Source: an uncultured Janibacter sp.
GTDB lineage: Bacteria > Actinomycetota > Actinomycetes > Actinomycetales > Dermatophilaceae
Assembly (NCBI GenBank): GCA_964386935.1
Contig: CAYLUX010000001.1
Coordinates: forward strand, 23,386 to 87,385
Direction of reading: 5' to 3'
Length of the DNA stretch: 64,000 nucleotides
Shown here: positions 15,897-34,224 of the stretch, piece after piece
Layout of the letters: every line of letters starts with the position of its first letter
Numbering within the stretch: position 1 is the stretch's first letter
Notes under the pieces: generated by a model
Seen by the model: the letters and a program-made list of their open reading frames with translations, nothing else
Told to the model about the DNA's origin: nothing
The model's database searches: none
Made by a program: the position numbers and the translations under genes

Positions 15897-16385
15897 ATGG
15901 AGCAGCTGCCACGGACCGGGGTCGGGGTCGACGTCCATGCCTTCGCGGAGGCCGAGGCGGCACGGGAGCTGTGGGTCGGTGGGCTGCTGTGGCCGGGGGA
16001 GTCTGGCCTGGCCGGTCACTCCGACGCCGACGTCGCCTGCCACGCGGCCTGTGACGCGCTCTTCTCCGCGGCCGGGATCGGCGACCTGGGGCAGCACTTC
16101 GGGACCGGTCGGCCGGAGCTCGCCGGCGCCTCGGGCGCGACCCTGCTCGCCGAGGCGGCCCGGCTCGTGCGCGAGGCGGGCTTCGAGATCGGCAACGTCG
16201 CGGTGCAGGTCATCGGCAACCGCCCGAAGATCGGGACCCGTCGTGGCGAGGCGCAGAAGGTCATGTCGGACGCCTGCGGCGCCCCCGTCGCCGTCAGCGG
16301 GACGACGAGCGACGGTCTCGGGCTCACCGGTCGGGGCGAGGGGTGCGCCGCGATCGCGACCGCCCTCGTGGTGGCCCGGGTCTGA
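15897..16385 (+). CDS. ispF: 2-C-methyl-D-erythritol 2,4-cyclodiphosphate synthase
   Basis: ATG 15897. Contains 'GVGVDVHAF', '[16 protein letters not shown]', 'IGNRPKIG'. Confidence 0.9.
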
Positions 16386-17808: not shown

Positions 17809-19307
17809 GCTGCGGCTCCAATCAGGGAGAGCGCCCGGTCGACTGCCTGGGCATTGGACAGGTAGACCTCGGCTCCGGCCTCGGCCAGCGCCCTCGCCTG
17901 CTCGTCGAGCACCTGCGGGTCCTCGGCGGTGCCGATGCAGCTCACGAGGACGGTGAGATCCCGGCCCTCGGCACGGGCTGCCGCGATGGCGTCGCGGATC
18001 GCGGGGGCCGTGCTGGCGGCGGGGTCGGCGTCGGCACCGTGGCCGAGCACGACGTCCATGAGCACGACCGCCGCGTCCGGGTCCGCGCCGGTGGCGGCGA
18101 GGTGTTCGAGTCGGATCGTGGGGTCGATCATCGGGTGGGCCCGCCCGGCGGTCATCGAGTCGTCACCGAAGTCGATCATCACCGTGCCGTCGGCCGTGAG
18201 CGTCGGGCCGAGCGTGTACCGGGAGTCCAACGGGATGTTGCTGTACACCGGGCCGACGCGGTCCGTGGCCATGATCATGGCCTCGTCGCACAGCGTCCCG
18301 CCCGCGAAGAGGCCCCGCAGCCGCCCGGCGGTCGCCGTCGTGCCGGCAGCACCCCACGTGGGCCAGGTGGGCACCGGACGGTCGAGGGCGGTCAGGACGG
18401 TGGCAGCCGCCTCGGTGAGGTCGGGCCGTCCCGGTCCGAGGAGTGCGAAGTGGACCGGTGTGTCCAGCGTGTCCGCGAACCGGCGCAACTCGGCCTCGAC
18501 CTGCTCCGCCGGCGGCTTGGAGACCACGACGATCAGCTCGGTCCCCGGGTCGGCGTCGAGCCGGCGCATCGCCTGCATGGTCGCCAGACCACCGACCTCG
18601 GGGCCCAGGTCGCGACCGCCGACACCGAGCGCGGCGCTCATGCCGACGCCGGCGTGGTCGAGCAGGCACATCAGCTGCTGGCAACCCGTGCCGGAGGCCG
18701 CGACCAGGCCGACAGGCCCGGGACGCACCGCATTGGCGAAGCCGAGGCCCACTCCGTCCACCATCGCGGTTCCGCAGTCCGGACCCATGACGAGCAGGTC
18801 ACGGGCGGTGGCGATCCGTTTCAGTGCGACCTCCTGGTCGAGGGGCACGTTGTCGCTGAAGATCATCACGTCGTGGCCGGCGTCGAGGGCATCCATCGCC
18901 TCGACGACGGCACTCGCCCCGGGGACCGAGACGAGGGCCAGCGCCGAGTCCGAGCGCCGCAGGGCACTCGTGACGGTGCGTGCCGGCTCCTCCGCGCTGC
19001 CGGAGGACTCCGATCGCCTCGTCACGGCGGCCAGAGCCGCGTCGACAGCCGCCAGCGCCTCCTCCAGGGAGGACCGGTCCTCGAGCCGGATGGCCACGAC
19101 CATGTCGTTGGGGGTGGTCTCGGGCAGCTCGAAGCCCATCGAGGCGATGACGTCGAGGTTCAACGGCGTCGCCATCGCGACCTGTGCTGCTCGGACGCCC
19201 CGGACACCGGCCACGTCCTTGCTGACCTGCAGGAGTGCGACGGAGTCCGCGTAGGCGCCGGGGCGCCGTTCCACGTGGACGTGGCCGGCGTCGGTGGTGG
19301 AGGTCAT
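17805..19307 (-). CDS. fdrA: FdrA-like protein (succinyl-CoA-ligase alpha fold)
   Basis: ATG 19307 (the track ORF is extended to 19601 by R-rich junk). Contains 'LVSVPGASAVVEAMDALDAGHDVMIFSDNVP', 'LVMGPDCGTA', 'VGLVAASGTG'. It overlaps both neighbours by 4 nt. Confidence 0.85.
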   Translation of the reverse strand: MTSTTDAGHVHVERRPGAYADSVALLQVSKDVAGVRGVRAAQVAMATPLNLDVIASMGFELPETTPNDMVVAIRLEDRSSLEEALAAVDAALAAVTRRSESSGSAEEPARTVTSALRRSDSALALVSVPGASAVVEAMDALDAGHDVMIFSDNVPLDQEVALKRIATARDLLVMGPDCGTAMVDGVGLGFANAVRPGPVGLVAASGTGCQQLMCLLDHAGVGMSAALGVGGRDLGPEVGGLATMQAMRRLDADPGTELIVVVSKPPAEQVEAELRRFADTLDTPVHFALLGPGRPDLTEAAATVLTALDRPVPTWPTWGAAGTTATAGRLRGLFAGGTLCDEAMIMATDRVGPVYSNIPLDSRYTLGPTLTADGTVMIDFGDDSMTAGRAHPMIDPTIRLEHLAATGADPDAAVVLMDVVLGHGADADPAASTAPAIRDAIAAARAEGRDLTVLVSCIGTAEDPQVLDEQARALAEAGAEVYLSNAQAVDRALSLIGAAA

Positions 19308-20119
19308 GGGCAGGTGCTCCTTGATCTGAGGTGGTCCAGGGCGAGCGAGAGTCCCAGCACCAGACCGTGGCCGGACGTGTGACCGATGTGGGTCAGGTCG
19401 GCCACCGCGGCGGGGACCTCGTCGGGCCGGGCGGTGAGGGCGTCCAGCAGGTGTGCGAACTGGGGCACGGTCTCCCCGTGCAGTGCTCGACGCAGCAGCG
19501 TCGCCGAGAGGGAGGTGGTGCGTGTCCCGGCGGCGGCGAGCACCCTCCGGCCGAAGGGGGCCGCGCACGGGTGTCGTGCGGCGACGACGGTGGCGAGCCA
19601 ACCGCTCAGGACGTCGTCACCGAGCGGCGTGAGTCCGCTGCCGAGGCCGAGCAGGGCATCGACCGCGCGCACGTCCGCGTCCGCGAGGTCCTGCAGTGCC
19701 GCGGTGGGCAGCTCGGTCCGGATCTCGCTGCCCGCCGCCGGAGCCGACTCGAGGCGGAAGAGCATCCGGGGGGCCTCCTCGGGGTCGATCACCGTCGCGA
19801 CGCGACTGCTGATGCGTCCCACGCGGACCCGTGCCCCGGTGAAGTGGAGCGCTCCGCCGTCGATCGTGACGGTGCTGCCGGGGGCAGGAGGGCGTCCGTC
19901 GAGGGCGAGCCGGCCGGTGTCGGTCAGGGTCGTGTGCAGCCCGCACGGCACCAGGACCGCTCGTCGCGACAGCACGGCGACGACCTCCTTGCCGAGGTCG
20001 AGGTAGACCGCGTCCGGCCCGGAGTGGAGCACGGGCACCTGCGTGGGCCCCTCGGCGAGGAGCTCCCGGATCCACCGGGGACCGGCGGCGGAGACGTCGG
20101 TGCGGACCGCCGTGGTCAC
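19304..20119 (-). CDS. DUF2877 protein, YlbF/AllH-like
   Basis: GTG start, 271 aa. Contains 'LLGLGSGLTPLGDDVLSGWL' and 'IGHTSGHG'. First gene of a ylbF-fdrA-ylbE-type operon. Confidence 0.75.
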   Translation of the reverse strand: MTTAVRTDVSAAGPRWIRELLAEGPTQVPVLHSGPDAVYLDLGKEVVAVLSRRAVLVPCGLHTTLTDTGRLALDGRPPAPGSTVTIDGGALHFTGARVRVGRISSRVATVIDPEEAPRMLFRLESAPAAGSEIRTELPTAALQDLADADVRAVDALLGLGSGLTPLGDDVLSGWLATVVAARHPCAAPFGRRVLAAAGTRTTSLSATLLRRALHGETVPQFAHLLDALTARPDEVPAAVADLTHIGHTSGHGLVLGLSLALDHLRSRSTCP

Positions 20120-20218: not shown

Positions 20219-21874
20219 ATGAACCATGGGTACCGGGTCCCCCTTCGTGACGTCCTGGAGGTCGATGCCCTCGCGGACACGTCGGTGCTGGCGGGCCGTT
20301 CCGGTCTGGACCGGGTCGTGACGCGGCTGAACGTCATGGAGGTGCCCGACATCGTCGACTGGGTGGGCCCGCACGCCCTTCTGGTCACGGCCGGGTTCCC
20401 GCTCGTCGGGCTCGACGAGGAACGGTTCATCGACCTGATCCGGGGCCTCGACGAGCGAGAGGTCACGGCGCTGGGGATCAAGGTCGGCCGATATCTCGAC
20501 GAGATCCCCCCGAGCGTCCTCGAGGTCGCGGACGAGCTCGGGTTCCCCCTGCTGGCGCTCTCGGCGGATCTCGCCTTCGAGGACCTCCTCGAGGAGGTCC
20601 ACGTGCGTCTCACGGAGGTCCAGCAGGGAGTCCTGGAGCGCACGGATGCCCTGCACGCGGCGCTGGAGGGCCTGGTCCTCGAGGGGGCCGGTCTCGAGGA
20701 GATCGCTACCCGGATCGCCGAGGTGCTGGGGATCGGTGTCCTCGTGACGACGGTGGACGGACGTGAGCTGGCGGGGGCCCTGGCCGATGACATGCGCGAG
20801 ATCCTCGCGGGGGAGGACCTGTCCGACCCCACCGGTCGGATCCGGGTGGAGCGACTGCGGGTGCGACCGATGAGGGTCGGGGGCGGGCAGGTGCTGGTCC
20901 AGCCGGTGGTCGCCGCGAACAGCGACCTGGCGCGTCTCGTCGCCTTCGACCCGCACCGGGTGATCCCCAAGGACGACGTGTACGCCCTGCAGCGGGCGTC
21001 GGCGGTGGCCGCCCTCCTCATCTCCCAGCAGCAGGCCGTCAGCGCCGTGGAGTCGAAGTACCGGGGTGACTTCCTCCGGGACGTCCTCAGCGACCGGGCC
21101 GGCGACGAGGGCCGGGTGAGGGACTACGCGGCCGGGCTGGGGTGGAGCATCGATCTGCCGGTGATGGTGGTGACGGCGCGGCTCGACCCACCGGACAAGG
21201 GCTCGTCACCGGAGGGCAACCCGAGGGAGTGGCGCGAGCGCTTCTTCCAGGCGTGGAAGAAGGTCGTGGCCTCCCGCGGCCCCGAGCACCCCACGGCCGA
21301 CTTCTTCGACGAGGTCGTCAGCATCCTCTCCGCGCCGGAGCACCTGCGCGACCAGCCCAAGGCGGCGACGGAGCACCTCCAGGGGCAGGTCGCCGACATC
21401 GTCAGCGAGGTGGCGGGGGACCGGGGCGGGAGCCGGCGGCCCTTCTCCGTCGGTACCAGTCGGCTGGTGCGAGTCTGGGACGGGTTGCCCGCCGCCTACC
21501 GGCAGGCGCGGCGGGCCAACGAGGTCGGCTACCGGTTCACGGGAGGCAGCGGCACCTCGCACTTCGACGACCTGGGCATCCACCGCCTCATCGGGCTGAT
21601 CCCCGACCGGGGGGAGATGGAGGCCTTCGCCGAGGACGTCCTGGGCGAGCTGGCCGGTGAGGGGCCCGAGGTGGAGGGGCTGCGCGACACCCTGCAGGTG
21701 CTTCTCGACGCCAATCTCAACGTGGCGGAGGCCTCCCGGATCCAGTACGTCCACTACAACACGATGCGTTACCGGATCACGAAGCTCGAGCAGCTGCTCG
21801 GGTCCTTCACGACGGATCCCGCCCTGCGTCTGAACCTCGCGGTGGCGCTCCAGGTGCGCAGGATCCAGCTCTGA
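20219..21874 (+). CDS. PucR-family transcriptional regulator
   Basis: 551 aa. N-terminal PucR-type domain ('LRDVLEVDALADTSVLAGRSGLDRVVTRLNVMEVPD') and C-terminal HTH ('AEASRIQYVHYNTMRYRITKLEQLLG'). Confidence 0.85.
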   Translation: MNHGYRVPLRDVLEVDALADTSVLAGRSGLDRVVTRLNVMEVPDIVDWVGPHALLVTAGFPLVGLDEERFIDLIRGLDEREVTALGIKVGRYLDEIPPSVLEVADELGFPLLALSADLAFEDLLEEVHVRLTEVQQGVLERTDALHAALEGLVLEGAGLEEIATRIAEVLGIGVLVTTVDGRELAGALADDMREILAGEDLSDPTGRIRVERLRVRPMRVGGGQVLVQPVVAANSDLARLVAFDPHRVIPKDDVYALQRASAVAALLISQQQAVSAVESKYRGDFLRDVLSDRAGDEGRVRDYAAGLGWSIDLPVMVVTARLDPPDKGSSPEGNPREWRERFFQAWKKVVASRGPEHPTADFFDEVVSILSAPEHLRDQPKAATEHLQGQVADIVSEVAGDRGGSRRPFSVGTSRLVRVWDGLPAAYRQARRANEVGYRFTGGSGTSHFDDLGIHRLIGLIPDRGEMEAFAEDVLGELAGEGPEVEGLRDTLQVLLDANLNVAEASRIQYVHYNTMRYRITKLEQLLGSFTTDPALRLNLAVALQVRRIQL

Positions 21875-22023: not shown

Positions 22024-23412
22024 ATGGCGAACATGTTCAGGTGGACAGAAGTACATGGGGGAAAGACGCCGCCTCCGGGCGAGTCGGTGGGTCCTCATGA
22101 ACGAATGAGCTGGGGGCGCACGATCGGGATCGGCGCCCAGCACGTGGTCGCGATGTTCGGCGCCACGTTCGTCTTCCCCGTCATCATGGGCCTGGATCCC
22201 AACCTGGCGATCCTCTTCTCCGGGTTGATGACGATCCTCTTCCTCATCATCGTCAAGAACTGGGTGCCCAGCTACCTGGGCACGAGCGCCGCCTTCGTCG
22301 CCGTCGTGATCGCCATCCGCTCCCAGGGCGGGGACTCCTCGGACGTCACCGGAGCGATCCTGGCCGCGGGTGCCGTCCTTGCCCTGGTCGGTGTCGGCGT
22401 CCACTTCGCCGGTCCTCGGCTCCTGAAGAAGGTGCTCCCCCCGGCCGTGACCGGCGGGGTGGTCATGCTCATCGGCTTCAACCTCGCGCCGGTCGTGGCG
22501 GACACGTACTGGCCCCAGGACCAGTGGATCGCGATCCTGACGACGCTCTTCCTCGTCGTCGGCGCCGTGCTCTTCCCCGGCTTCTGGGCGCGGATCGCGG
22601 TGTTCCTGGGTCTCCTGTTCGGCTTCCTCCTCTCGTGGCTCGCCGACGTCACCCTGGGGCCGATCACGTCGGTGACACCGACCAGCAACGGCGAGGCCGT
22701 CCCCCACGACCGGGTGAGCTTCGCCGGGATCGGCGACGCCTCGTGGTTCGGTCTCCCCAGCGGCGATCTCGCCGACGGTGTCGCCGCCGTCCACGGGCCG
22801 AGCTTCTCGCTGACCTTCATCCTGCTGGCGCTCCCCGGTGTCATCGCCCTCATCGCCGAGAACACCGGCCACGTGCGGGCCATCGCGGAGATGACTGGTG
22901 ACGACCTCGATCCCTACATGGGCCGGGCCCTCGGGGCCGACGGTCTGGCCACGGTCCTCGCCAGCTCGGTCGGAGCCTCACCCACGACGACCTATGCAGA
23001 AAACATCGGCGTCATGTCGGCCACCCGCATCTACTCGACGGCGGCCTACTACGTGGCGGCCATCGTGGCGATCATCCTGGGGCTGGTGCCGAAGTTCGGC
23101 GTCATCATCAACGCCATCCCCGGGGGCGTCCTCGGCGGGATCACCGTCGTGCTCTACGGGATGATCGGCCTGATCGGCGCCAAGATCTGGGTGGACAACC
23201 ACGTCGACTTCGGCAGTCCGAAGAACATCGTCCCGCTGGCCGCCGGCCTCATCGTCGGGATCGGTGACGTGACGTTGGAGATCACGGACGACTTCCAGCT
23301 GGGTGGCATCGCCTTCGGCACGATCCTCCTGCTCGTGCTCTACCACCTCGTCAACCGTAGTGACACTCCCACCAACGAGCCCAGTGACGAAACGGATCTG
23401 ACCTACACGTGA
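22024..23412 (+). CDS. NCS2-family nucleobase:cation symporter, uracil/pyrimidine (UraA/RutG) branch
   Basis: AGGAG (22013-22017) lies 6 nt before the ATG. Contains 'GAQHVVAMFGATFVFPVIMGLDPN' and the NCS2 signature 'TTYAENIGVMSATRIYS' (ENxGxxxxTR, as in UraA rather than the QN form of xanthine permeases). Confidence 0.85.
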   Translation: MANMFRWTEVHGGKTPPPGESVGPHERMSWGRTIGIGAQHVVAMFGATFVFPVIMGLDPNLAILFSGLMTILFLIIVKNWVPSYLGTSAAFVAVVIAIRSQGGDSSDVTGAILAAGAVLALVGVGVHFAGPRLLKKVLPPAVTGGVVMLIGFNLAPVVADTYWPQDQWIAILTTLFLVVGAVLFPGFWARIAVFLGLLFGFLLSWLADVTLGPITSVTPTSNGEAVPHDRVSFAGIGDASWFGLPSGDLADGVAAVHGPSFSLTFILLALPGVIALIAENTGHVRAIAEMTGDDLDPYMGRALGADGLATVLASSVGASPTTTYAENIGVMSATRIYSTAAYYVAAIVAIILGLVPKFGVIINAIPGGVLGGITVVLYGMIGLIGAKIWVDNHVDFGSPKNIVPLAAGLIVGIGDVTLEITDDFQLGGIAFGTILLLVLYHLVNRSDTPTNEPSDETDLTYT

Positions 23413-24296
23413 AACCCGCTCCCTTCCGCTACGAACGTCCGACGAACCTGGCCGGGGCCCTGGCCGTCCGGGCCTCGGAGCCCGAGGCGAAGGTCCTCGC
23501 AGGTGGGCAGAGCCTGATCCCCCTGATGTCGATGCGGCTCAGCACCGTCCCGGTGCTCATCGACATCAACGGGCTCGAAGAGCTCTCCCGCATCACGGTG
23601 GACCAGTCCGGGGTCCGGTTCGGCGCCATCGTGCGGCACAGCGAGCTGCTGGCGCACGAGGAGGCGAGGAAGGTCCAGCCCCTCCTCGCGGCCGCCCTCG
23701 AGCACGTCGCCCACGCGACCATCCGCAACCGGGGGACGAGCGTCGGCTCGATCGCGCATGCCGACGCCTCCGGGGAGATGCCGATGATCCTCTGCCTCAC
23801 CGGCGGCAGCCTGACCGTCGCGTCGACGCGGGGCCGGCGGGAGATCCCGGCCCAAGACCTGTTCGTCGGGGCCATGGAGACCAGCCTCGAGCCGGACGAG
23901 ATCGCGATCGAGGCTTTCGCGCCGGCGCTCGCGGCACGCAGCGGGATCGCCTACGACGAGGTCGCCCGTCGACACGGTGACTACGCCCTCTGCGGTGTGG
24001 GCGCCGTGGTCACCCACGACGAGGAGGGCCGGATCGAGCACGCCCGGGCGGGGTTCGTGTCGGTCTCGGAGGTTCCCGAGGTCGTCGACCTCACCGAGTG
24101 CTTCCCGCGGGGAGAGCTGAGCGAAGGGAGCCTGGCGGATGCCGGCGACCACGCCCTGAGCCGGCTCGACCCGGAGTCCGACATCCACGCCACGGCCGAC
24201 TACCGGGCGCAGCTCGCGCGCACGCTCACCGTCAGGGTGCTGCGCGCCGCCGACGAGGACGCCCGCGCCCGGACGATCCGGAAGGAGAGGGTCTGA
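23409..24296 (+). CDS. molybdenum hydroxylase FAD-binding medium subunit (CoxM/CutM type)
   Basis: GTGA overlap with the permease stop. Contains 'VLAGGQSLIPLMSMRL' and 'IRNRGTSVGSIAHADA'. Confidence 0.85.
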   Translation: MKPAPFRYERPTNLAGALAVRASEPEAKVLAGGQSLIPLMSMRLSTVPVLIDINGLEELSRITVDQSGVRFGAIVRHSELLAHEEARKVQPLLAAALEHVAHATIRNRGTSVGSIAHADASGEMPMILCLTGGSLTVASTRGRREIPAQDLFVGAMETSLEPDEIAIEAFAPALAARSGIAYDEVARRHGDYALCGVGAVVTHDEEGRIEHARAGFVSVSEVPEVVDLTECFPRGELSEGSLADAGDHALSRLDPESDIHATADYRAQLARTLTVRVLRAADEDARARTIRKERV

Positions 24297-24298
24297 CC

Positions 24299-24805
24299 AT
24301 GGAGGATCCCGCTGCAGAGGAGACCGTGTCGATCCAGTTGCGGGTCAACGGCATCACCCACACCATCGAGGCGCCGCCACGACGACTGCTGAGCGACGCC
24401 CTCCGCCACGACCTCGGCCTCACCGGCACGCACGTGGGGTGCGAGCACGGGGTCTGCGGGGCCTGCACCATCCTCGTCGACGGTTCTCCCATGCGCTCCT
24501 GCCTGATGTTCGCCGTCAGTGCCGCGCACCACGAGCTGACCACGGTGGAGGGGCTGGCGTGCAGGGACGGGCGGCTGAGCCCGACGCAGCAGGCCTTCAA
24601 GGAGTGCCACGGGCTGCAGTGCGGCTTCTGCACGCCCGGGTTCCTCACGACCATCAGCGCCGGGATCAGGGACAACCCGGACCCGGACCGCCAGGAGGCG
24701 CAGGACATGATCGCCGGCAACCTCTGCCGGTGTACCGGGTACCAGAACATCGTCGCATCGGTCCTGCGGGCGGCTGAGATCCAGCGGGAGGAGGACAGGC
24801 GATGA
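24299..24805 (+). CDS. molybdenum hydroxylase [2Fe-2S] small subunit (CoxS/CutS type)
   Basis: ATG 24299. Cluster motifs 'GCEHGVCGACTILVDG' and 'QCGFCTPGF ... CRCTGY'. Confidence 0.9.
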   Translation: MEDPAAEETVSIQLRVNGITHTIEAPPRRLLSDALRHDLGLTGTHVGCEHGVCGACTILVDGSPMRSCLMFAVSAAHHELTTVEGLACRDGRLSPTQQAFKECHGLQCGFCTPGFLTTISAGIRDNPDPDRQEAQDMIAGNLCRCTGYQNIVASVLRAAEIQREEDRR

Positions 24806-27225
24806 CCACGAGGATGATGGGTGAGCCGGTCGCCCGGGTCGAGGACGATCGCTTCGTCACGGGTCAGGGCCGCTACACCGACGACGTCGTGCCGGGCGCC
24901 CTCGAGGCGGCGGTGCTGCGCAGCCCGCACGCGCACGCGCGCATCGTCGACATCGAGGTCGAGGCCGTCCTGGAGATCCAGGGCGTGCACGCCGTCTACA
25001 CCTACGAGGACCTCACGGGTCCGATGGCCGAGCCGCTGCCGCTGCTCATCCCACACCCCGCCCTGACCGAGGGGCGCACCCAGTACGCGCTGGCGAAGGA
25101 CGAGGTCAACTACGTCGGCGAGGCGGTGGCCTTCGTCGTCGCCGACAACCGCTACATCGCCGAGGACGCACTGGACTGCATCGAGGTGGAGTACGAGCTC
25201 CTCGAGCCGGTGGTGGGGATCCCCGCGGCCAGGGAGGCGAGCACCCTCGTCCACGACGACGTCCCGGGCAACAGGGCGGCGATGTTGCAGCAGTCCTTCG
25301 GCGACGCGGACGCCGCGATCGAGGCGGCGCCCCACCGGCTGGAGCTCGACCTGAGCATCGAGCGCAGCGCGTCCACCCCTCTGGAGGGGCGCGGGACGGT
25401 CGCGCGCTGGGATGCCGACCTGAACCGGATGACGGTGTGGACCTCGACGCAGACGTCCACGGGGGTGCGTGCCGCGGTCGCGGCCAAGCTCGGCCTCGGC
25501 CTCGGTCAGGTCGACGTGGTCACGCCGGACGTCGGGGGAGGTTTCGGCGTCAAGATCATGCACCCGTGGCCCGAGGAGCTCCTCGTCCCCCTGGCGGCCG
25601 CGGCGCTGGGCCGCCCGGTGAAGTTCACCGAGGACCGACGTGAGCACTTCATCTCGGCCGCGCACGAACGCGGCCAGGAGCACCACATCGAGGTCGGCTT
25701 CGACGACGACGGGCGGATGCAGGGTCTGTCGGTGCACTTCTGGCACGACAACGGCGCCTACACCCCGTACGGGCTGATCGTCCCCATCATCACCTCGACG
25801 CAGCTGCTCGGCCCGTACAAGCCACCGAACTACTCGGTGACCTTCGAGAGCCTCTACACCAACACCGTGATCGTCACCCCCTACCGGGGAGCCGGCCGGC
25901 CCCAGGGCGTCTACGCGATGGAGCGCACGATGGACGCGATCGCCGCCCACCTCGGCCTGGACCGCACGGCGGTCCGCGAGGCGAACTTCATCCAGCCCGA
26001 CGAGTTCCCCTACGCCCAGGGCGACCTGATCTTCCAGGACGGGAGACCCCTGGTCTACGACTCCGGCGACTACCCGGGGTTGATGACCAAGGCCAAGGAC
26101 CTCATCCGCTGGTCGGACTTCGAGTCCTACCGGGAGGAGGCGCGGGCCGCCGGGCGCAGGGTCGGTATCGGCATCGCCTGCTACGTCGAGGGCACCGGGG
26201 TGGGACCGTACGAAGGGGGCCACGTCCAGATCGAGACCAGCGGCAAGGTCAAGGTCTCCACCGGGCTCACCACGCAGGGGCAGGGACACCAGACCGCCTT
26301 CGCCCAGATCGTCGCCGACGAGCTGGGGGTCCCCTTCGAGGACGTCGAGGTCGTCACGGGCGACACCAGGCGCTCCCCGTACTCCGTCGGCACCTTCGCC
26401 TCCCGCGCCGCGGTGATGAGCGGGTCCGCCATCGCCCTCGCGGCACGCAACGTGCGGGAGAAGGCGCTTCGCCTCGCATCGGACGCGCTCGAGGCCGATG
26501 TGGAGGACCTCGAGATCGACGACGGCATCGTCCACGTCAAGGGCGCCCCGCAGAGCCAGATCGCGCTCGGGACGCTGTCCGTGCTCTCGAACCCGCTTCG
26601 TTACGCCTTCGACGAGGCCTCCCGCGCGGCAACGCAGTTCGTCGTGGGGGACGCGACCAAGCCACCCGTCGCCGACGACGACGAGCCCGGGCTGGAGGGC
26701 AAGGACTACTACTCGCCGATGGGCTCGACATTCGCCAGCGGGATCCACGCCGTGGTCGTCGAGACCGACCCGGACACGGCGGAGATCAGCATCCTGGAGT
26801 ACGCCGTGGTCCACGACTGCGGGACCCTGATCAACCCCCGGATCGTCGAGGGCCAGATCCATGGCGGGGTCGCCCAGGGTGTCGGGGGAGCGCTCTACGA
26901 GCGGATGGCCTACGACGAGCACGGGCAGCTGCAGAACGCCTCCTTCATGGACTTCCTCATGCCCTACGTCACGGAAGTCCCCGACGGGATCTCGATCGAC
27001 CACCAGGAGACGCCCTCCACGATGAACCCGTTGGGGCTCAAGGGCGCCGGGGAGGCCGGGGTGATCCCGGTGTCGGCCGCGCTCGCCTCCGCCATCGAGG
27101 ACGCCGAGGGCTTCCCGATCACCGCCATGCCGATATCGCCCTCCGAGCTGTATGCACTCCGGGACACCCACCGGAGCGCACGCGACACCGGGCGCAGTCA
27201 CGACGTCGAAAGGACCTCCAAGTGA
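24802..27225 (+). CDS. molybdopterin-binding large subunit (CoxL/CutL type, form-II-like)
   Basis: ATGA overlap. Contains 'RVEDDRFVTGQGRYTDD'. The active-site loop is 'TPYRGAGRPQG', not the CO-dehydrogenase 'AYRCSFR'. Also 'GLKGAGEAG', the catalytic Glu region. Confidence 0.9.
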   Translation: MTTRMMGEPVARVEDDRFVTGQGRYTDDVVPGALEAAVLRSPHAHARIVDIEVEAVLEIQGVHAVYTYEDLTGPMAEPLPLLIPHPALTEGRTQYALAKDEVNYVGEAVAFVVADNRYIAEDALDCIEVEYELLEPVVGIPAAREASTLVHDDVPGNRAAMLQQSFGDADAAIEAAPHRLELDLSIERSASTPLEGRGTVARWDADLNRMTVWTSTQTSTGVRAAVAAKLGLGLGQVDVVTPDVGGGFGVKIMHPWPEELLVPLAAAALGRPVKFTEDRREHFISAAHERGQEHHIEVGFDDDGRMQGLSVHFWHDNGAYTPYGLIVPIITSTQLLGPYKPPNYSVTFESLYTNTVIVTPYRGAGRPQGVYAMERTMDAIAAHLGLDRTAVREANFIQPDEFPYAQGDLIFQDGRPLVYDSGDYPGLMTKAKDLIRWSDFESYREEARAAGRRVGIGIACYVEGTGVGPYEGGHVQIETSGKVKVSTGLTTQGQGHQTAFAQIVADELGVPFEDVEVVTGDTRRSPYSVGTFASRAAVMSGSAIALAARNVREKALRLASDALEADVEDLEIDDGIVHVKGAPQSQIALGTLSVLSNPLRYAFDEASRAATQFVVGDATKPPVADDDEPGLEGKDYYSPMGSTFASGIHAVVVETDPDTAEISILEYAVVHDCGTLINPRIVEGQIHGGVAQGVGGALYERMAYDEHGQLQNASFMDFLMPYVTEVPDGISIDHQETPSTMNPLGLKGAGEAGVIPVSAALASAIEDAEGFPITAMPISPSELYALRDTHRSARDTGRSHDVERTSK

Positions 27226-27860
27226 AGCTCTCCGGATCCACCCACCTCGCCGCACCTCCCGAGGACGTCTGGGATGCGCTGCTGAACCCCGATGTCCTCA
27301 CCAGGACCATCCCCGGATGCGAACGGCTGGAGCCGACCGGGGAGAACACCTACGACCTGACCGTGACGGCCGGCGTGGCCTCCATCAAGGGCACCTACAA
27401 GGGGGCCGTGGAGCTCGAGGACCTGGTACCGCACCAGTCGCTGACGATGCGCGTCGACGGGGCCGGCTCGGCCGGCACCATCGGCGTCACCGTGCGGGTG
27501 CGCTTCGAGCCGGGCGAAGGGGGGACCACCGACCTGAGCTATGACGCGGACGCGGTCGTCGGCGGGATGATCGGCGGTGTCGGCCAACGGATGCTGACCT
27601 CGGTGAGCAAGCGGATGGCCGGCCAGTTCTTCGGGGCCGTCAACGACGTGCTGACCGGCGTGGCCGTGCCTGCAGCCGCACCGGGGGTGCCGGCGCAGGC
27701 GGCAGCAGCCGGTGCCGGAGTGCCCGCTCCCGTGGCCGGTGCCGGCTTCGCCCCACAGGCCGGTTCCTCGACCCAGGACCTCGTCAAGGGCGCCCTCGTC
27801 GGTGGGGCCCTCGTCCTGGCGGGTGTGCTCGCGGGGGCACTCGCCGGACGTCGCCGCTGA
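27222..27860 (+). CDS. CoxG-like SRPBCC protein with C-terminal membrane anchor
   Basis: GTGA overlap. Starts 'MKLSGSTHLAAPPEDVWDALLNPDVL'. An A/P/G-rich linker is followed by the hydrophobic tail 'LVGGALVLAGVLAGALAGRRR'. Confidence 0.8.
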   Translation: MKLSGSTHLAAPPEDVWDALLNPDVLTRTIPGCERLEPTGENTYDLTVTAGVASIKGTYKGAVELEDLVPHQSLTMRVDGAGSAGTIGVTVRVRFEPGEGGTTDLSYDADAVVGGMIGGVGQRMLTSVSKRMAGQFFGAVNDVLTGVAVPAAAPGVPAQAAAAGAGVPAPVAGAGFAPQAGSSTQDLVKGALVGGALVLAGVLAGALAGRRR

Positions 27861-27872
27861 GGAGGGTGTGCC

Positions 27873-29288
27873 GTGACGGACTCGCTCGACCACTACTCGA
27901 GCGCTCGCCGGATGCGGGACGCGGTCCGGGCGAAGGAGATCTCCGCCCGGGAGCTCCTCGAGCTGCACCTGGAGCGCATCGAGCAGGTCAACCCCCGCGT
28001 CAACGCCATCGTCAGCCCGGATCCGGATCGGGCGCGATCGGCCGCGGCGCTGGCCGACGAACAGCTCGCGCGGGGTGAGGACGTCGGCCCCCTGCACGGG
28101 CTGCCCTTCGCCGTGAAGGACACCCACGAGGTCGGTGGTTGGCTCTCCACGTCGGGGTCACCGGTGCGCGCCGACCACGTACCCGAGCGCGACGAGCTGG
28201 TGGTCGAGCGGGTCCGGTCCGCCGGAGCGATCATCGTCGGGAAGACCAACACGCCGGAGTTCGCCTCGGGATCCCACACCTTCAACCCGCTGTTCGGGAC
28301 GACCTACAACCCCTACGACCTCGGTCGGTCCGCGGGAGGCTCCAGTGGAGGCGCGGCCGCGGCCCTGGCCAGCGGCATGGTCCCCCTGGCGGACGGCAGC
28401 GACATGGGCGGGTCCCTGCGCAACCCGGCCTCCTTCTGCAATGTCGTGGGGATGCGCCCCTCCTTCCAGCGGGTCCCCCAGTGGCCCAGCAGCAACTACT
28501 GGGAGGTCATCTCGGTCCAGGGGCCGTTGGCCCGCAGCGTGGACGATCTGGCCCTCCTGCTCTCGGTGATGTCCGGACCGACGGACCGGGTCCAGACCGC
28601 GCAGCAGGTCCCGGGGAGGGTCTTCGACGAGGTGCCCCCTGCCGACCTCGGCGGGCTCCGGGTGGCGCTCTCGATCGACCTGGCGGGCGGGTTCGAGGTC
28701 GATGCCGACGTCGCCGCCATCGTCCGGGACCAGGGAGCCGTCCTGGAGGGGGCGGGGGCCAGGGTCCGTGACGCTGCTCCTGACCTCCGGGGTGCCGAGG
28801 ACACCTTCCGCACACTGCGCGCCTGGCACTTCCAGGCCTCGTACGGAGAGCTCCTCGAGCGCCACCCGGACTCCTTCAAGCAGTCCCTGGCGGACAACAT
28901 CCGCGCCGGGGAGTCGCTGACCGGTGCCGACGTCGCCCGCGCCTACCGGCAGCGGTCCGCGCTGGCCGACCGGATGCGGCAGTTCTTCGAGGACCACGAC
29001 GCCCTCGTCCTGCCCGTGAGCCAGGTCCCGCCCTTCCCCGCGGACATGGAGTACCCGGCGGACATCAACGGGCAGGTCCAGGAGACCTATCTGGACTGGA
29101 TGCGGTCGGCATTCCTGATCTCGGTGACCGGCTGCCCGGCGATGTCGGTCCCGGCCGGGTTCACCGACGACGGCCTGCCGGTGGGCCTGCAGATCGTCAC
29201 GCCCGCCAACACCGAGCACCGGCTCCTGGCGATCGCGCGGGCATTCGAGCAGCTGACCGGGATCGGGGCCCGTCGCCCCGTGCTGTGA
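27873..29288 (+). CDS. amidase-signature (AS) family amidase
   Basis: GTG start 12 nt after the coxG-like stop. Contains 'PFAVKDT', 'GGSSGGAAAALA', 'GSDMGGSLRNPASFC' (Ser-cisSer-Lys triad context). Confidence 0.9.
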   Translation: MTDSLDHYSSARRMRDAVRAKEISARELLELHLERIEQVNPRVNAIVSPDPDRARSAAALADEQLARGEDVGPLHGLPFAVKDTHEVGGWLSTSGSPVRADHVPERDELVVERVRSAGAIIVGKTNTPEFASGSHTFNPLFGTTYNPYDLGRSAGGSSGGAAAALASGMVPLADGSDMGGSLRNPASFCNVVGMRPSFQRVPQWPSSNYWEVISVQGPLARSVDDLALLLSVMSGPTDRVQTAQQVPGRVFDEVPPADLGGLRVALSIDLAGGFEVDADVAAIVRDQGAVLEGAGARVRDAAPDLRGAEDTFRTLRAWHFQASYGELLERHPDSFKQSLADNIRAGESLTGADVARAYRQRSALADRMRQFFEDHDALVLPVSQVPPFPADMEYPADINGQVQETYLDWMRSAFLISVTGCPAMSVPAGFTDDGLPVGLQIVTPANTEHRLLAIARAFEQLTGIGARRPVL

Positions 29289-29305
29289 TTCAGCAGATTC
29301 TGACA
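29286..29305 (+). promoter_or_regulatory. shared island motif, copy A (upstream of hyuA)
   Basis: TGATTCAGCAGATTCTGACA. The first 11 nt are identical to copy B. Confidence 0.45.
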
Positions 29306-29396
29306 ACCCGACGGTGTCGTCACGTCAGGTACTGCCGTGGATCCGACGGAGATACCGCGATGGGGTGGCATCGGAACCACAACCAGGAGGCGCAGG

Positions 29397-31487
29397 GTGC
29401 AACGAGGCAGCCACATCAGGATCGGGATCGACACGGGCGGCACCTTCACCGACGTCGTCGCATTCGACGAGCTCACCGGGCGCACGGTCACGACGAAGAC
29501 CCCCTCCACGCCCGAGGACCCGGCGGAGGGCTTCCTCGCCGGTACCGCGAAGGTCCTGGACGAGCTCGGCCTCGGTGCCGACACCGTCAGCGCCATCAGC
29601 CACGGCACCACGGTCGCGACCAACCAGCTCCTCGAGGGCAAGATCGAGCGGATGGGCTTCATCGCCAATGCCGGGTACGAGGCCGTGCTGGAGATCGCAC
29701 GACAGTCCGTGCCGGACGGTTACGGGAACTCCTACTTCTGGGTCAAGCCGGAGCGCATCGTGCCCCGCCACCTCGTCAGGGGAGTGCCGGGACGGCTGGA
29801 CTTCACCGGCGAGGAGATCGAGGCCTTCGACGAGCAGCGGGCACGCGAGGTCGCGCGCTGGTTCCGCGAGCACGAGGTGCACACCCTGGGCGTCTGCCTC
29901 CTGCACTCCTACGCGAACCCCGCGCACGAGCAGCGGATGCGCGAGATCCTGCGTGAGGAGCACCCCGACGCCATCGTCTCGGTCTCCTCCGAGGTGCTGC
30001 GGGAGTACCGGGAGTACGAGCGCTCGATGACCACCCTCGTCGACGCCGCGGTCAAGCCGCGGCTCTCCCGCTACATCGACAACATCACGACCCGGCTGGA
30101 CGGACTCACCACCGGGGGAGGGCTGCCCTTCTACGTCATGAAGTCCAACGGGGGCGTGCTCAGTGCGGAGGAGGTGGTCCACCAGCCGATCACGACGGTG
30201 CTCTCGGGGCCCGCGGCGGGTGCCCTGGGGGCGGCCATGATCGGTGACCTGGCGGGCTTCGACCGGGTCCTCACCTGTGACGGCGGCGGGACCTCGACCG
30301 ACGTCTCGGTCGTCATCGACGGGAGCCCCACCCTGACCACGGAGGGCTCCGTCGGGGTCTACCCGAGCAAGATCCCCATGATCGACGTGGTCACCGTGGG
30401 TGCCGGAGGCGGCTCGATCGCCGGCCTGTCACCCGAGGGCACCCTCAAGGTCGGGCCCGCCTCGGCCGGTGCGGACCCCGGGCCCGTCTGCTACGGCAAC
30501 GGGGGCACGGAGGTGACCATCACGGACGCCCACGTCGTCCTCGGGCGCGTCCCCGCACACCTGCTCGGCGGCGAGATCGGACTGGACGTCGACGGTGCCC
30601 GGGCCGCGTTGGAGCAGCTGGCGGGCTCCCTCGACATGACCGTCGAGGAGTGCGCGGTCGGGATCCTCGAGATCTCCGCCTGGAACCAGGCGAACGCCCT
30701 TCGTCAGGTCACGGTCAAGCGGGGTCTCGACGTCCGCGACTTCGCGCTCACCACGTTCGGTGGCTCCGGTTCGCTCCTGCTGTGCCGGCTCATGGACATC
30801 CTCGACATCGCGACCGTGCTCGTGCCGTTGAACCCCGGCAACCTGTCCGCCTTCGGCCTGCTGACGGTGGACGTCAAGAACGACTACGTGCAGACCTCGG
30901 TGACGCTGCACAGCCAGCTGCAGGCCGATCACCTGACGGCGGTCTACGGACAGCTCGAGGAGCAGGCGGTCGACGCCCTCACCCGTGAGGGGTTCGACTC
31001 GGAGGTCCACCAGCTGGTCCGTACCGCGGACCTGCGTTACTTCGGTCAGGCCTTCGAGGTCCGGGTCCCCGTGGCGGAGGGGCCGATCACCCGGGAGGTG
31101 ATCGACGCGGTGGCCAAGCGCTTCCACGACGAGCACCGCACGCTCTACGGCTACGACTTCGAGGGCAACCCGGACCAGCAGGTCGAGTGGGTCAACCTCC
31201 GGGTGTCCGGCATCGGGCCGATCCGACGTCCGGAGCTGACGCCGGAACCGGTGCAGCAGGACCCACCGACCGTCCCGACCGGTCGGCGCAGCGTCTGCTT
31301 CGACCCGGAGCGTGGCCGGGTCGACACCCCCGTCTACTGGCGCGAGGACCTGGCGCCAGGGGCCCGGCTCACCGGCCCGGCCGTCATCGAGGAGTTCGGG
31401 TCCACCGTGCCCATCCACCCCGGATTCGTCGTCCGTGTCGACGAGTACCGCAACATCATCGTCACTCGCGAAGGAGCCGAGGCATGA
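29397..31487 (+). CDS. hyuA: hydantoinase/oxoprolinase family, A (HyuA-like) subunit
   Basis: AGGAGG (29385-29390) lies 6 nt before GTG 29397. Contains 'IRIGIDTGGTFTDVVAFD' and 'GGGTSTDVS'. Confidence 0.85.
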   Translation: MQRGSHIRIGIDTGGTFTDVVAFDELTGRTVTTKTPSTPEDPAEGFLAGTAKVLDELGLGADTVSAISHGTTVATNQLLEGKIERMGFIANAGYEAVLEIARQSVPDGYGNSYFWVKPERIVPRHLVRGVPGRLDFTGEEIEAFDEQRAREVARWFREHEVHTLGVCLLHSYANPAHEQRMREILREEHPDAIVSVSSEVLREYREYERSMTTLVDAAVKPRLSRYIDNITTRLDGLTTGGGLPFYVMKSNGGVLSAEEVVHQPITTVLSGPAAGALGAAMIGDLAGFDRVLTCDGGGTSTDVSVVIDGSPTLTTEGSVGVYPSKIPMIDVVTVGAGGGSIAGLSPEGTLKVGPASAGADPGPVCYGNGGTEVTITDAHVVLGRVPAHLLGGEIGLDVDGARAALEQLAGSLDMTVEECAVGILEISAWNQANALRQVTVKRGLDVRDFALTTFGGSGSLLLCRLMDILDIATVLVPLNPGNLSAFGLLTVDVKNDYVQTSVTLHSQLQADHLTAVYGQLEEQAVDALTREGFDSEVHQLVRTADLRYFGQAFEVRVPVAEGPITREVIDAVAKRFHDEHRTLYGYDFEGNPDQQVEWVNLRVSGIGPIRRPELTPEPVQQDPPTVPTGRRSVCFDPERGRVDTPVYWREDLAPGARLTGPAVIEEFGSTVPIHPGFVVRVDEYRNIIVTREGAEA

Positions 31488-33424
31488 CCACATCGAGGCT
31501 TGCTCCCACGGAGTTCCCCTTCGGTTCGCTCACCCCCGACGCGGGGGCGGGCGCGGACCCCGTGATCGTCGAGATCGTCCAGGGCAGCCTCGCCTCCGTC
31601 GAGATGGAGGTGGAGACGGCCATCGCGCGGACGTCCCGGTCCCCGATGATCCGGGACGCCCACGACTTCCGTGCGGGGATCCACGACCGCTTGTTGCGCA
31701 AGCTCACGGGGCGTTCCTACAGCGCGCTGGTCCACCCCGTGGCCCGGGACTTCCCGCTGGAGTCGATGGTCCCGGGCGATGTCTTCTTCCACAACGACGT
31801 CTACGAGTCCGAAGGGGGGATCGGTCACCTTCCGGACCTGTGCGTCACCGTGCCGGTCTTCCACACCTCCGCCGGTTCGGAGCGACCGGAGGTGGTCGCC
31901 TTCGTCCAGGCCTTCGGCCACCACGACGACATCGGGGGAGCGGTGCCCGGCTCGATGCCGAGTGGCGCGACGAGCGTGTTCGAGGAGGGGCTGATGGTCC
32001 CACCGATCAAGCTCTGGGACGCCGGCGTCCCGGTCCGGTCCGCGCTGCGCATCATGACGCGCAACTCCCGGACCCCGGAGGCGCTGGCCGCGGACCTCGA
32101 CGCCGAGTGCTCCGCCTGCCTCATGGGTGCGCGGCGACTGGGCGAGCTCTTCGACCGGTACGGCCGCGACGCGGTCGAGTCGGCCTTCGACGCGGTCATC
32201 GACAACACGACCCGGACCTACCGCCGGGAGATCCTCAGTCGGATCCCGGTGGGGACGTGGACCTGGGAGGACTACGCCGAGCACGACGGGGTCGAGGACC
32301 CGAAGCTGCACACGCAGCGGATCACCCTGACGAGGACCTCGGCGGAGGACCCCGAGGGGGAGCGGCTGATCTTCGACTTCGCCGGCACCTCGCCCCAGGC
32401 CAAGGGGCCCATCAACCACTGCGCCGACTACTCCGACGGTGTCTTCCTCAAGAAGTGGCTGGCCCCGATCCTGCGGAACCTGGCCGAGACACCCGAGCGG
32501 ATGGCGGAGCTCGACGTCAACGAGGGCATCGTGCCGCTCATCGAGATGCGCTTCCCGCCGAAGGGGACCCTGCTCACCCCGGAGTTCCCCGCCCCGACGA
32601 ATGCACGCACCTTCGTCATCCTCCGGTTGCTCGGGGTGCTCGCCGGCGTCATCGCCAAGGCGGTCGACGGGCGGATGCCCGCGGACCAGGAGACGATCCG
32701 GTACACCGGTGTGTACGGCGAGGGGCGCGACGGCCGGCCGTACCTCATGCGCGAGGTGCTCGGGGGTGGGTCCGGAGGGCGCTACTACGCCGACGGCGAG
32801 GACACCATCCACGTCGTGCCGGACTCGCGCAACCTGCCGACCGAGTTCACCGAGTCGCGCTTCCCCTTCATCGTGGAGAGCCTCGGCCTGGCCATCGACT
32901 CCGGGGGAGCGGGGCAGTTCCGTGGCGGTCTGGGCTACGAGAAGCGGCTGCGGATGCTCAAGGACGCACGGTTCATGTCCATCGCCGACCGGTCCATCCT
33001 CGCCTGCTGGGGCGTGAAGGGCGGTCGGGCCGGGGCCCCCTTCGAGGTGGTCATCAATCCCGGGACCGATCGGGAGCGGCACGTGGACGCCCTCGCGGAC
33101 GACGAGGAGGTGTCGGCGGGCGAGACCATCTGCATCCGCACCACCGGTGGCGGAGGGTGGGGTGATCCACTGGACCGCGAGCCGGAGTCCGTCGTCCGTG
33201 ACGTGGCCTGGGCGAAGGTTTCCGCGGAGGCGGCACTGCGCGACTACGGGGTCGTGCTGACCGGATCGATCGAGACAGACGACCTGGGGCATGACGCCGA
33301 GGCCACGACGGCCGAGCGCCGGCGGCTGCGGGAGGCCCGCGGCGAGGAGCCGTTCTTCGACCGTGGCCCCGGCTACGCGCGTCTCAGCGACGGCAGGAGC
33401 AGCGCGGACGTGGACTGGCTCTGA
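31484..33424 (+). CDS. hyuB: hydantoinase/oxoprolinase family, B (HyuB-like) subunit
   Basis: ATGA overlap with hyuA. Contains 'DPVIVEIVQGSLASVEMEVETAIARTSRSPMIRDAHDF' and 'GGGGWGDPLDREPESVVRDV'. Confidence 0.85.
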   Translation: MTTSRLAPTEFPFGSLTPDAGAGADPVIVEIVQGSLASVEMEVETAIARTSRSPMIRDAHDFRAGIHDRLLRKLTGRSYSALVHPVARDFPLESMVPGDVFFHNDVYESEGGIGHLPDLCVTVPVFHTSAGSERPEVVAFVQAFGHHDDIGGAVPGSMPSGATSVFEEGLMVPPIKLWDAGVPVRSALRIMTRNSRTPEALAADLDAECSACLMGARRLGELFDRYGRDAVESAFDAVIDNTTRTYRREILSRIPVGTWTWEDYAEHDGVEDPKLHTQRITLTRTSAEDPEGERLIFDFAGTSPQAKGPINHCADYSDGVFLKKWLAPILRNLAETPERMAELDVNEGIVPLIEMRFPPKGTLLTPEFPAPTNARTFVILRLLGVLAGVIAKAVDGRMPADQETIRYTGVYGEGRDGRPYLMREVLGGGSGGRYYADGEDTIHVVPDSRNLPTEFTESRFPFIVESLGLAIDSGGAGQFRGGLGYEKRLRMLKDARFMSIADRSILACWGVKGGRAGAPFEVVINPGTDRERHVDALADDEEVSAGETICIRTTGGGGWGDPLDREPESVVRDVAWAKVSAEAALRDYGVVLTGSIETDDLGHDAEATTAERRRLREARGEEPFFDRGPGYARLSDGRSSADVDWL

Positions 33425-34224
33425 TGGTGGTTGCCGACATCGCCGTGCTCAGTGGCCGGGGGAAGACCGGGGGCGCGGTGGTGTCGGCGCTGCGTCGGCG
33501 CGGCGTCGCTGCCCGGCCGCTGGGGCGAGCCGAGCTGGTCGATCTCCCGGAGGCCCTGAGGGGGTGCACGGGTCTCTACCTCATGGCGCCCAACATGAGC
33601 GAGGACGAGCCCTCCTTCGTCGACTCGGCCCTGCGGGCGGCCGGCAGAGCCGGCATCCGCAGGGTGGTCTACCACTCCGTGGCCGCTCCGTACGCGCCAC
33701 TGATGCCCCACCACCTGGGCAAGGCGGAGGCCGAGGACCTCGTGCGCCGCAGTGGCCTCGACTGGACGATCCTGCAGCCCTGCGCCTACGTCCAGAACCT
33801 CCTCCCCGGTCTGCGGGCGGACCCTCCGGGCATCGACGTCGTCTACGACCCCGATCGCAGGTTCGGACTCGTCGACGTCGAGGACGTGGGTGAGGCGGCA
33901 GCGATCACGCTCCTCCGGTCCGAGGACGTCGGGGCGACCTACGAGCTCGGTGGGCCCGAGCTGGTCAGCGTGCGTGAGGTGGCCGGTGTCGCCGAGGAGG
34001 TGATCGGCCGGCGCGTGCCGGTGCGTCGGATCCCGGTGGCCGAGTGGTCGGCCGGCGCCGGCCGCGGTCTCGAGCCGAGGGTGCGTGACTGGCTCCTGGC
34101 GATGTTCGCCTACTACGACCGGTACGGCCTGCCGGCCGGGTCCGGGTCGCTCGTCGGCCTGCTGGGCCGTCCGCCGAGGGGACTGACGCCGATCCTGCGT
34201 CGAGAGCTCGGCGCATTGTCATGA
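33424..34224 (+). CDS. NmrA-like / atypical SDR NAD(P)-binding protein
   Basis: TGATG junction with hyuB. 266 aa. 'GRGKTGGAVVSAL' is a degenerate Rossmann start. Also 'GLDWTILQP'. Confidence 0.65.
   Translation: MVVADIAVLSGRGKTGGAVVSALRRRGVAARPLGRAELVDLPEALRGCTGLYLMAPNMSEDEPSFVDSALRAAGRAGIRRVVYHSVAAPYAPLMPHHLGKAEAEDLVRRSGLDWTILQPCAYVQNLLPGLRADPPGIDVVYDPDRRFGLVDVEDVGEAAAITLLRSEDVGATYELGGPELVSVREVAGVAEEVIGRRVPVRRIPVAEWSAGAGRGLEPRVRDWLLAMFAYYDRYGLPAGSGSLVGLLGRPPRGLTPILRRELGALS

Follow-up and report, generated by a model that had tools for sequence, protein, structure and literature searches.

Probable assignment of a barbiturase-linked CoxMSL-type molybdenum hydroxylase of Janibacter as uracil/thymine dehydrogenase

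Classical oxidative pyrimidine catabolism (Hayaishi & Kornberg 1952; Soong et al. 2001, 2002, via PMC3758960) is a three-step pathway, catalyzed by uracil dehydrogenase, barbiturase and ureidomalonase, that ends in urea and malonate. One of its enzymes, uracil-thymine dehydrogenase, was purified from Rhodococcus erythropolis JCM 3132 by the group that later published Soong et al. 2024 (J Biosci Bioeng 137:413; PMID 38485553), an article whose title, as cited in PMC12529397, announces the "Gene identification ... uracil-thymine dehydrogenase". We analyzed a 64,000-nucleotide stretch of DNA from an uncultured Janibacter sp. (GenBank assembly GCA_964386935.1, contig CAYLUX010000001.1, positions 23,386 to 87,385 of the forward strand; hereafter the window, whose own numbering is used throughout), which has a G+C content of ~70%. 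At 23409-27860 the window carries coxM-, coxS-, coxL- and coxG-like genes, followed in the same gene run by genes for an amidase and a barbiturase. CoxMSL, barbiturase and amidase are candidates for all three steps of the classical pathway, and the three-subunit molybdenum hydroxylase encoded at 23409-27225 is very probably uracil/thymine dehydrogenase (EC 1.17.99.4).

Among enzymes of solved structure, the large subunit CoxL is closest to quinoline 2-oxidoreductase (1T3Q, 452 bits) and 6-hydroxypseudooxynicotine dehydrogenase (7DQX, 434 bits). Both resemble the window enzyme in their three-subunit Mo/FeS/FAD architecture and in the catalytic Gln and Glu, and both hydroxylate a carbon beside a ring nitrogen, as is proposed for the window enzyme. 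They are nonetheless distant and fall clearly outside the clade that clustering at 50% identity delimits, with loops YRGVGF and YRAPGR in place of the window YRGAGR and with other substrates and gene contexts. The form-I Mo-Cu carbon-monoxide dehydrogenases (CODHs) that have a CoxG (Afipia/Oligotropha 1N5W; Mycobacterium smegmatis 8UEM; PMC12202499) share the subunit architecture and score 364-369 bits against CoxL. They differ from the window enzyme in possessing the CSFR loop, the Cu-binding cysteine and coxDEF genes, whereas the context in the window is nucleobase-catabolic.

Open reading frames of the window were chosen by codon-position GC bias and then scanned against Pfam and NCBIfam. 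On the + strand lie the genes for a CoxM-like medium (FAD) subunit (23409-24296; 295 aa, 31.6 kDa; Pfam FAD_binding_5 and CO_deh_flav_C), a CoxS-like small subunit with two [2Fe-2S] clusters (24299-24805; 168 aa, 18.2 kDa; Fer2 and Fer2_2), a CoxL-like large molybdopterin subunit proposed to hydroxylate uracil and thymine at C6 (24802-27225; 807 aa, 86.8 kDa; Ald_Xan_dh_C, MoCoBD_1 and MoCoBD_2) and a CoxG-like SRPBCC protein (27222-27860; 212 aa; PF06240, 86 bits). The xanthine oxidase family domains of CoxL (PF01315, the a/b-hammerhead, PF02738 and PF20256) were matched with E-values of 1e-25 to 1e-85. The motifs that the preliminary description of this DNA had listed for the three subunits were all located: AGGQSL of the FAD subunit at residues 31-36 of CoxM, the two [2Fe-2S] motifs as cysteine clusters of CoxS (C48-C68 and C108-C145), and, in the Mo-pterin large subunit, YRGAGR at residues 361-366 (PYRGAGR, 360-366). 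GGGFG is conserved at residues 245-249 of CoxL, and its Gln217 and Glu751 align with conserved Gln/Glu columns of quinoline oxidoreductase and CODH and are taken to be the catalytic pair of a molybdenum hydroxylase.

These four genes are translationally coupled. The coxM stop is separated by 3 nt from the coxS start, which is preceded by the ribosome-binding site GGAAGGAGAGGG, and coxS/coxL and coxL/coxG overlap by ATGA and GTGA, respectively. Coupling to a uracil-type permease upstream, also claimed in the preliminary description, is borne out by the overlap (GTGA) of the permease stop with the GTG start of coxM. The permease itself, a pyrimidine-type NCS2 nucleobase permease (22024-23412, +; Pfam Xan_ur_permease), is RutG/UraA-like: it scored 351 bits with the NCBIfam RutG model, 249 bits with uracil permease and 151 bits with xanthine permease, all below the curated cut-offs.

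Public databases treat the enzyme as an aerobic CODH (form II or "group 5"), a reading that we regard as highly improbable. In its favor, CoxL reaches 1472 bits with the NCBIfam model NF040766 "CODH_aero_grp5" (cut-off 950), and a coxG gene is present. However, the aligned CODH structures carry the copper loop YRCSFR, whose cysteine holds the copper of the Mo-Cu site, where CoxL has YRGAGR; the CODH equivalog TIGR02416 scored 455 bits against a cut-off of 991; and the genes are embedded in a nucleobase-catabolic run. Neither CoxD/E/F nor XdhC domains were detected among the window ORFs selected by GC bias and scanned. CoxG homologs, moreover, are known to occur beside non-CODH members of the family (PMC12202499). 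The argument of the preliminary description, that YRGAGR and the lack of coxDEF-type genes speak against a CODH, thus holds for the ORFs scanned, and the sequence data support CoxMSL as a form-II-type (YRGAGR) molybdenum hydroxylase of the xanthine oxidase family.

The same model scores show where the CODH name comes from. Besides the window CoxL, NF040766 matched the Rhodococcus protein with 1401 bits and the representative of the barbiturase-linked clade (see below) with 1497 bits; the nearest outsiders to the clade scored 998, 938, 853 and 833 bits. NF040766 therefore peaks on the barbiturase-linked clade and spreads the CO-dehydrogenase name within it, in all probability misannotating these proteins systematically. 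The name "uracil-thymine dehydrogenase" is borne by no cluster member listed, and no public source gives it to the Rhodococcus or Janibacter proteins, which go by "aerobic carbon-monoxide dehydrogenase large subunit" or "xanthine dehydrogenase family protein". An aldehyde oxidoreductase of the glyceraldehyde type, like the glyceraldehyde dehydrogenase of Sulfolobus, is just as improbable as a CODH. The NCBIfam glyceraldDH alpha, beta and gamma models were second best (623, 198 and 195 bits), but none reached its cut-off (790, 350 and 290), and the context is one of nucleobase catabolism, with no genes of sugar or aldehyde metabolism nearby.

The identity of the neighboring ring-opening enzyme is central to the assignment. 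The gene at 35279-36391 (+; GTG start, GGAAGGA ribosome-binding site) encodes an AtzD-family protein of 370 aa, on the same strand as coxMSLG and 7.4 kb from it, and is assigned as a true barbiturase (EC 3.5.2.1), in agreement with the barbiturase-family enzyme that had been noted in this island. Its best match among cyanuric acid hydrolases reached 332 bits, compared with 659 bits for PDB 5HWE, "Barbiturase", and it is 82% identical to the barbiturase of the R. erythropolis group. Because 5HWE is 99% identical to a protein of Rhodococcus qingshengii, the crystallized protein is itself an enzyme of the R. erythropolis type. Cyanuric acid hydrolase was considered for this gene, since the cut-off of NCBIfam NF052395 is passed, but rejected, as the protein is twice as close to the crystallized barbiturase. 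Cyanuric acid hydrolases conserve an arginine in domain B (SRG in 5T13), which is lost in both the window protein and 5HWE, where Asn (SNG) takes its place. The residue given for the barbiturase subgroup at this position is glutamine (PMC4051656), a minor mismatch that possibly reflects alignment register.

A genome scan yielded 80 related loci with CoxL of 72-85% identity, from Janibacter, Aeromicrobium, Nocardioides, Marmoricola, Pimelobacter, Mumia and Jatrophihabitans; the CoxL of J. corallicola is 94% identical to that of the window. The same order, AllG-AllF-(AllH)-PucR-NCS2-CoxM-S-L-G-amidase-HyuA-HyuB-(NmrA)-(CK)-Bar, where CK is carbamate kinase and Bar barbiturase, was found in 80 of 80 loci, an arrangement far beyond chance expectation. 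Of the 24 loci whose fetched flank suffices to judge, 20 contain the barbiturase gene (bar). Other actinobacteria have variants of this cluster. Saccharomonospora viridis has PucR-NCS2-CoxMSLG-HyuAB-Bar-amidase; in Embleya, an AllG/F-PucR-NCS2-CoxMSLG block adjoins barbiturase, carbamate kinase, carboxyltransferase and CoA-transferase genes (Bar-CK-CT-CoAT); and Nonomuraea has AllG/F-PucR-NCS2-CoxMSLG-HyuAB, with no bar seen within the fetched flank.

Chromosomes of the R. erythropolis group, the organisms in which conversion of uracil to barbiturate has been demonstrated, carry the order PucR-upp-bar-amidase-aminotransferase-NCS2-CoxM-CoxS-CoxL-CoxG-HyuA-HyuB-NmrA, and just upstream genes for a CoA-transferase, a carboxyltransferase and XdhC, together with another PucR and another permease. 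Compared with these proteins, the window subunits are 63% (L), 49% (M) and 66% (S) identical, and YRGAGR and GAGEAG are conserved. By shared synteny and by membership of one cluster at 50% identity, the window CoxMSLG genes are orthologous to the bar-locus set of this group, the only CoxMSL(G) set found in its barbiturase locus, with which they also share the NCBIfam family and the permease-M-S-L-G order. There are differences as well. The window subunits are shorter than those of Rhodococcus (L, 807 vs 840 aa; S, 168 vs 214 aa), and the window cluster is arranged differently and contains AllFGH and carbamate kinase, which are missing in the Rhodococcus locus; conversely, upp, the aminotransferase and the nearby XdhC distinguish the Rhodococcus locus from the window. 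The hosts also belong to different orders, the window host being Janibacter-like (Micrococcales). A second-type copy of the cluster was observed on pRZP2, a 926-kb linear plasmid of Rhodococcus sp. ZPP (L090, 497877-528295), with amidase, CoA-transferase, XdhC, PucR, NCS2, CoxMSLG, HyuAB and NmrA; its CoxL is 58% identical, and coxL and hyuA are missing from the incomplete gene table of PLSDB.

The distinctness of this clade was apparent when 1.84 billion representatives of clusters at 50% identity were searched. Only one full-length representative (77% identity, 1365 bits) stands for the whole clade, and the score then falls to 778 bits, at 49% identity, for the next relative. A phylogenetic check proposed in the preliminary description asked whether the large subunit would cluster tightly with an enzyme whose substrate is known and different; in this cluster search it did not. 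The two nearest outsiders (at most 49% identity) lie in unrelated contexts that have neither barbiturase nor CoxG nor the permease. In the nearest of all (49% identity; L085, 4632-13179), the order is Rieske-isochorismatase-HyuA-HyuB-CoxM-CoxS-CoxL-creatininase, and this pairing of a molybdenum hydroxylase with HyuAB perhaps serves another cyclic amide or N-heterocycle.

The assignment is based on the domains and motifs, the catalytic residues, the lack of the CODH copper loop, the identity of the barbiturase and the conserved synteny. Uracil/thymine dehydrogenase is the best assignment because CoxMSL is linked to a pyrimidine-type permease and a true barbiturase in several actinobacterial lineages, the R. 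erythropolis group included, and the candidacy put forward in the preliminary description is upheld on these grounds. Another N-heterocycle (a pyrimidone, a 5-substituted uracil, an isocytosine-type base or a triazine) might instead be hydroxylated and fed into the same island, with uracil a side substrate at most. Substrate specificity in this family is unreadable from sequence; the three steps of the classical uracil pathway leave no part for the conserved HyuAB and NmrA; and the nearest locus outside the clade also has HyuAB, beside creatininase and isochorismatase genes. We nevertheless consider this explanation unlikely, given that barbiturase is the only ring-opener of known specificity in the cluster and acts on C6-hydroxylated uracil, that the permease is UraA/RutG-like, and that an orthologous cluster exists in the group of organisms that demonstrably converts uracil to barbiturate.

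Several points weigh against assignment as uracil/thymine dehydrogenase. All public sources label the large subunit as that of an aerobic CODH. Classically, PucR, AllFGH and carbamate kinase serve purine and allantoin pathways. Linkage to bar is frequent, not obligatory: in 14 of 80 loci the amidase is the last gene of the cluster, and on pRZP2 there is no bar within 14 kb. Finally, the genes published in 2024 might differ from the CoxMSL genes beside Rhodococcus bar.

This last point bears on what was known of the enzyme before. The preliminary description had started from the premise that uracil/thymine dehydrogenase is a gene-orphan activity, which is out of date, insofar as the 2024 title reports gene identification. 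A literature search found no open paper describing the genes, and the 2024 title is known from a reference list only. As a lead only, the enzyme of that report is said to be heteromeric, with three different subunits, and to accept quinones and dyes, but not NAD(P)+, as electron acceptors; it reportedly acts on uracil, thymine and 5-halouracils, not on purines. Such properties would be in keeping with a quinone-coupled enzyme of the CoxMSL type. Soong and colleagues are likewise said to have described, in 2002, a upp gene that precedes bar, in line with the arrangement in the R. erythropolis group. The gene assignment made here is accordingly a correct call and not a new discovery, and its novelty is largely gone; a reading of sequence had reached an enzyme assignment whose gene identification was titled in 2024.

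The fourth gene product offers a route for the electrons. The C-terminus of the CoxG-like protein consists of an Ala/Pro/Gly-rich linker followed by GALVGGALVLAGVLAGALAGRRR, a hydrophobic tail that ends in RRR, as had been described, and a hydrophobic tail with a basic end is kept in 78 of 82 orthologs. In M. smegmatis, CoxG combines an N-terminal SRPBCC domain with a flexible linker and a membrane helix at the C-terminus; it takes menaquinone out of the membrane and delivers it to the enzyme (PMC12202499). The window protein has this layout in common with it. The suggestion that CoxG tethers the complex to the membrane can be refined, as the architecture is that of the menaquinone-delivering protein of M. 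smegmatis (PMC12202499) and points to more than tethering. The CoxG-like protein is thus a probable quinone shuttle as well as a membrane link.

Drawing on gene content and family chemistry for every step, we propose a plausible pathway. First, the co-transcribed NCS2 permease would import uracil or thymine. A Mo-bound hydroxyl activated by Glu751 would then attack C6 of the pyrimidine, with transfer of a hydride to Mo=S and incorporation of a water-derived oxygen, yielding barbiturate from uracil or 5-methylbarbiturate from thymine. Electrons would pass from Mo through FeS-I and FeS-II to FAD, and from there most likely to menaquinone presented by the tail-anchored CoxG-like protein, so that the enzyme would feed its electrons into the respiratory chain and not to NAD(P)+. 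Subsequently, barbiturase would open the barbiturate ring to give ureidomalonate. Finally, the amidase, a CoA-transferase and a carboxyltransferase may convert ureidomalonate via malonate and malonyl-CoA to acetyl-CoA.

The genes for these later steps belong to a + strand run of ~15.6 kb (22024-37593), counted as 14 genes and extending from the NCS2 permease to the CoA-transferase. The amidase-signature amidase (27873-29288, +; Pfam Amidase, 361 bits) is a candidate ureidomalonase or malonamidase; an amidase is present in 72 of 80 loci and adjoins bar in Rhodococcus and Saccharomonospora. The cluster amidases (window, 27873-29288; L082, 3891-5369; L084, 19022-20461) are mutually 41-50% identical, compared with 63-86% for other components, and may not be strict orthologs or share a substrate. 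Comparison of amidase type with the presence of AllFGH gave no clear pattern, the amidases being simply divergent at 41-50% identity. At the end of the run lies a family III CoA-transferase (36388-37593, +; NCBIfam CaiB/oxalate CoA-transferase-like, under cut-offs), a candidate malonate-activating enzyme. Convergent on the 3' end is the gene for a fused AccD/AccA-type carboxyltransferase (37611-39053, −; Pfam Carboxyl_trans and ACCA, with weak similarity to malonate decarboxylase beta), a candidate component of a malonyl-CoA decarboxylase. Both also adjoin the bar cluster in Rhodococcus (L081, 4340-7074) and Embleya (L088), and they are candidates for the conversion of malonate to malonyl-CoA and on to acetyl-CoA.

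Between amidase and barbiturase lie genes of less obvious function. HyuA and HyuB, an ATP-dependent pair of the hydantoinase/lactamase type (29337-31487 and 31484-33424, +; Pfam Hydantoinase_A and Hydantoinase_B), find their best NCBIfam match in caprolactamase, under cut-off. They are kept with coxMSLG in most lineages examined, HyuB with 77-83% identity, a conservation equal to that of barbiturase. An NmrA-like NAD(P)-binding protein (33424-34224, +; Pfam NmrA) follows HyuB, as it does in Rhodococcus, and is likewise kept with coxMSLG and bar in most of the lineages examined. Carbamate kinase (34273-35238, +) scored 327 bits with NCBIfam arcC (cut-off 358) and passed PRK12352 with 283 bits (cut-off 266); its gene is directly 5' of bar in at least 19 of 80 related loci.

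On the other side of the run, a PucR-family transcriptional regulator (20219-21874, +; Pfam PucR, GGDEF_2 and HTH_30) is encoded 5' of the catabolic genes and divergently from allH-F-G. A PucR gene stands beside the cluster in 54 of 80 loci and also in Rhodococcus, Saccharomonospora, Embleya and Nonomuraea. The divergent genes, all on the − strand, encode AllG-like (16405-17808; Pfam AllG, 324 bits), FdrA/AllF-like (17805 to about 19300, with a maximal ORF to 19601; Ligase_CoA, FdrA 407 bits) and AllH-like (19304-20119; Pfam AllH, 83 bits) proteins, by homology a three-subunit transcarbamylase-like enzyme of the oxamate-carbamoyltransferase type. AllG and AllF occur in 63-64 of 80 loci and in Embleya and Nonomuraea, and are absent from the Rhodococcus and Saccharomonospora loci.

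These genes bring a purine-type alternative into view, in which CoxMSL would be a xanthine/hypoxanthine dehydrogenase of an allantoin/oxalurate-type pathway and AllFGH and carbamate kinase would play their E. coli roles, taking oxalurate to oxamate and carbamoyl phosphate and thence to ATP. PucR, an NCS2 permease, an enzyme of the xanthine dehydrogenase (XDH) family, AllF/G/H homologs and carbamate kinase do occur here together, and E. coli AllFGH is oxamic transcarbamylase (PMC11326118). However, uricase, allantoinase, allantoate amidohydrolase and ureidoglycolate dehydrogenase were unmatched among the scanned island genes; XDH equivalog models gave 276-420 bits against cut-offs of 780-916; the permease is nearer to pyrimidine permeases; and the Rhodococcus and Saccharomonospora clusters lack AllFGH and carbamate kinase, yet have barbiturase. 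The alternative is therefore very improbable, although not quite as improbable as CODH or aldehyde oxidoreductase, and uracil/thymine dehydrogenase remains the preferred assignment.

Ureidomalonate is the methylene (one-carbon) homolog of oxalurate, which makes its cleavage by phosphorolysis, with a gain of ATP, chemically plausible. We tentatively speculate that in Janibacter, Nocardioidaceae, Embleya and Nonomuraea the pathway might not end in urea. Here, AllFGH-type phosphorolysis would split ureidomalonate into malonamate and carbamoyl phosphate, carbamate kinase would use the latter to form ATP, and the amidase would act on malonamate; HyuAB and NmrA might add one more ring reaction driven by ATP, such as the opening of thymine-derived 5-methylbarbiturate. 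This variant is less likely than not.

Other features of the window touch this system at its margins. An ArsO-like NAD(P)H flavin monooxygenase at the island edge (14777-15898, −) occurs in none of the 80 related loci and probably stands outside the pathway. An incomplete SBP_bac_11 solute-binding protein at the window edge (63371-64000, −), ~36 kb from the molybdoenzyme genes, could be a molybdate binder of the ModA type. The rest of the window is housekeeping in character, with PhoU, a two-component system, CarD, CysS, OtsA and Rpf-like proteins. A scan for sigma-70 promoters and terminators at the end of the gene run returned nothing, such a scan being uninformative in an actinobacterium of 70% GC.

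With the enzyme assignment no longer new, the remaining interest lies mainly in the database mislabeling and in the unexplained conserved partners. Thousands of proteins from actinobacteria and soil metagenomes bear a CO-oxidation label that is probably wrong; the label can inflate surveys of CO oxidizers and mask a widespread pyrimidine-oxidation trait. The textbook pathway to urea and malonate has no HyuAB, NmrA, AllFGH, carbamate kinase, CoA-transferase or carboxyltransferase. With these additional conserved genes, the genomic pathway exceeds the three textbook steps, and they are candidates for the missing chemistry. If the ATP-yielding variant is true, it would represent a substrate-level-phosphorylating form of pyrimidine catabolism in which two enzymes have new specificities.

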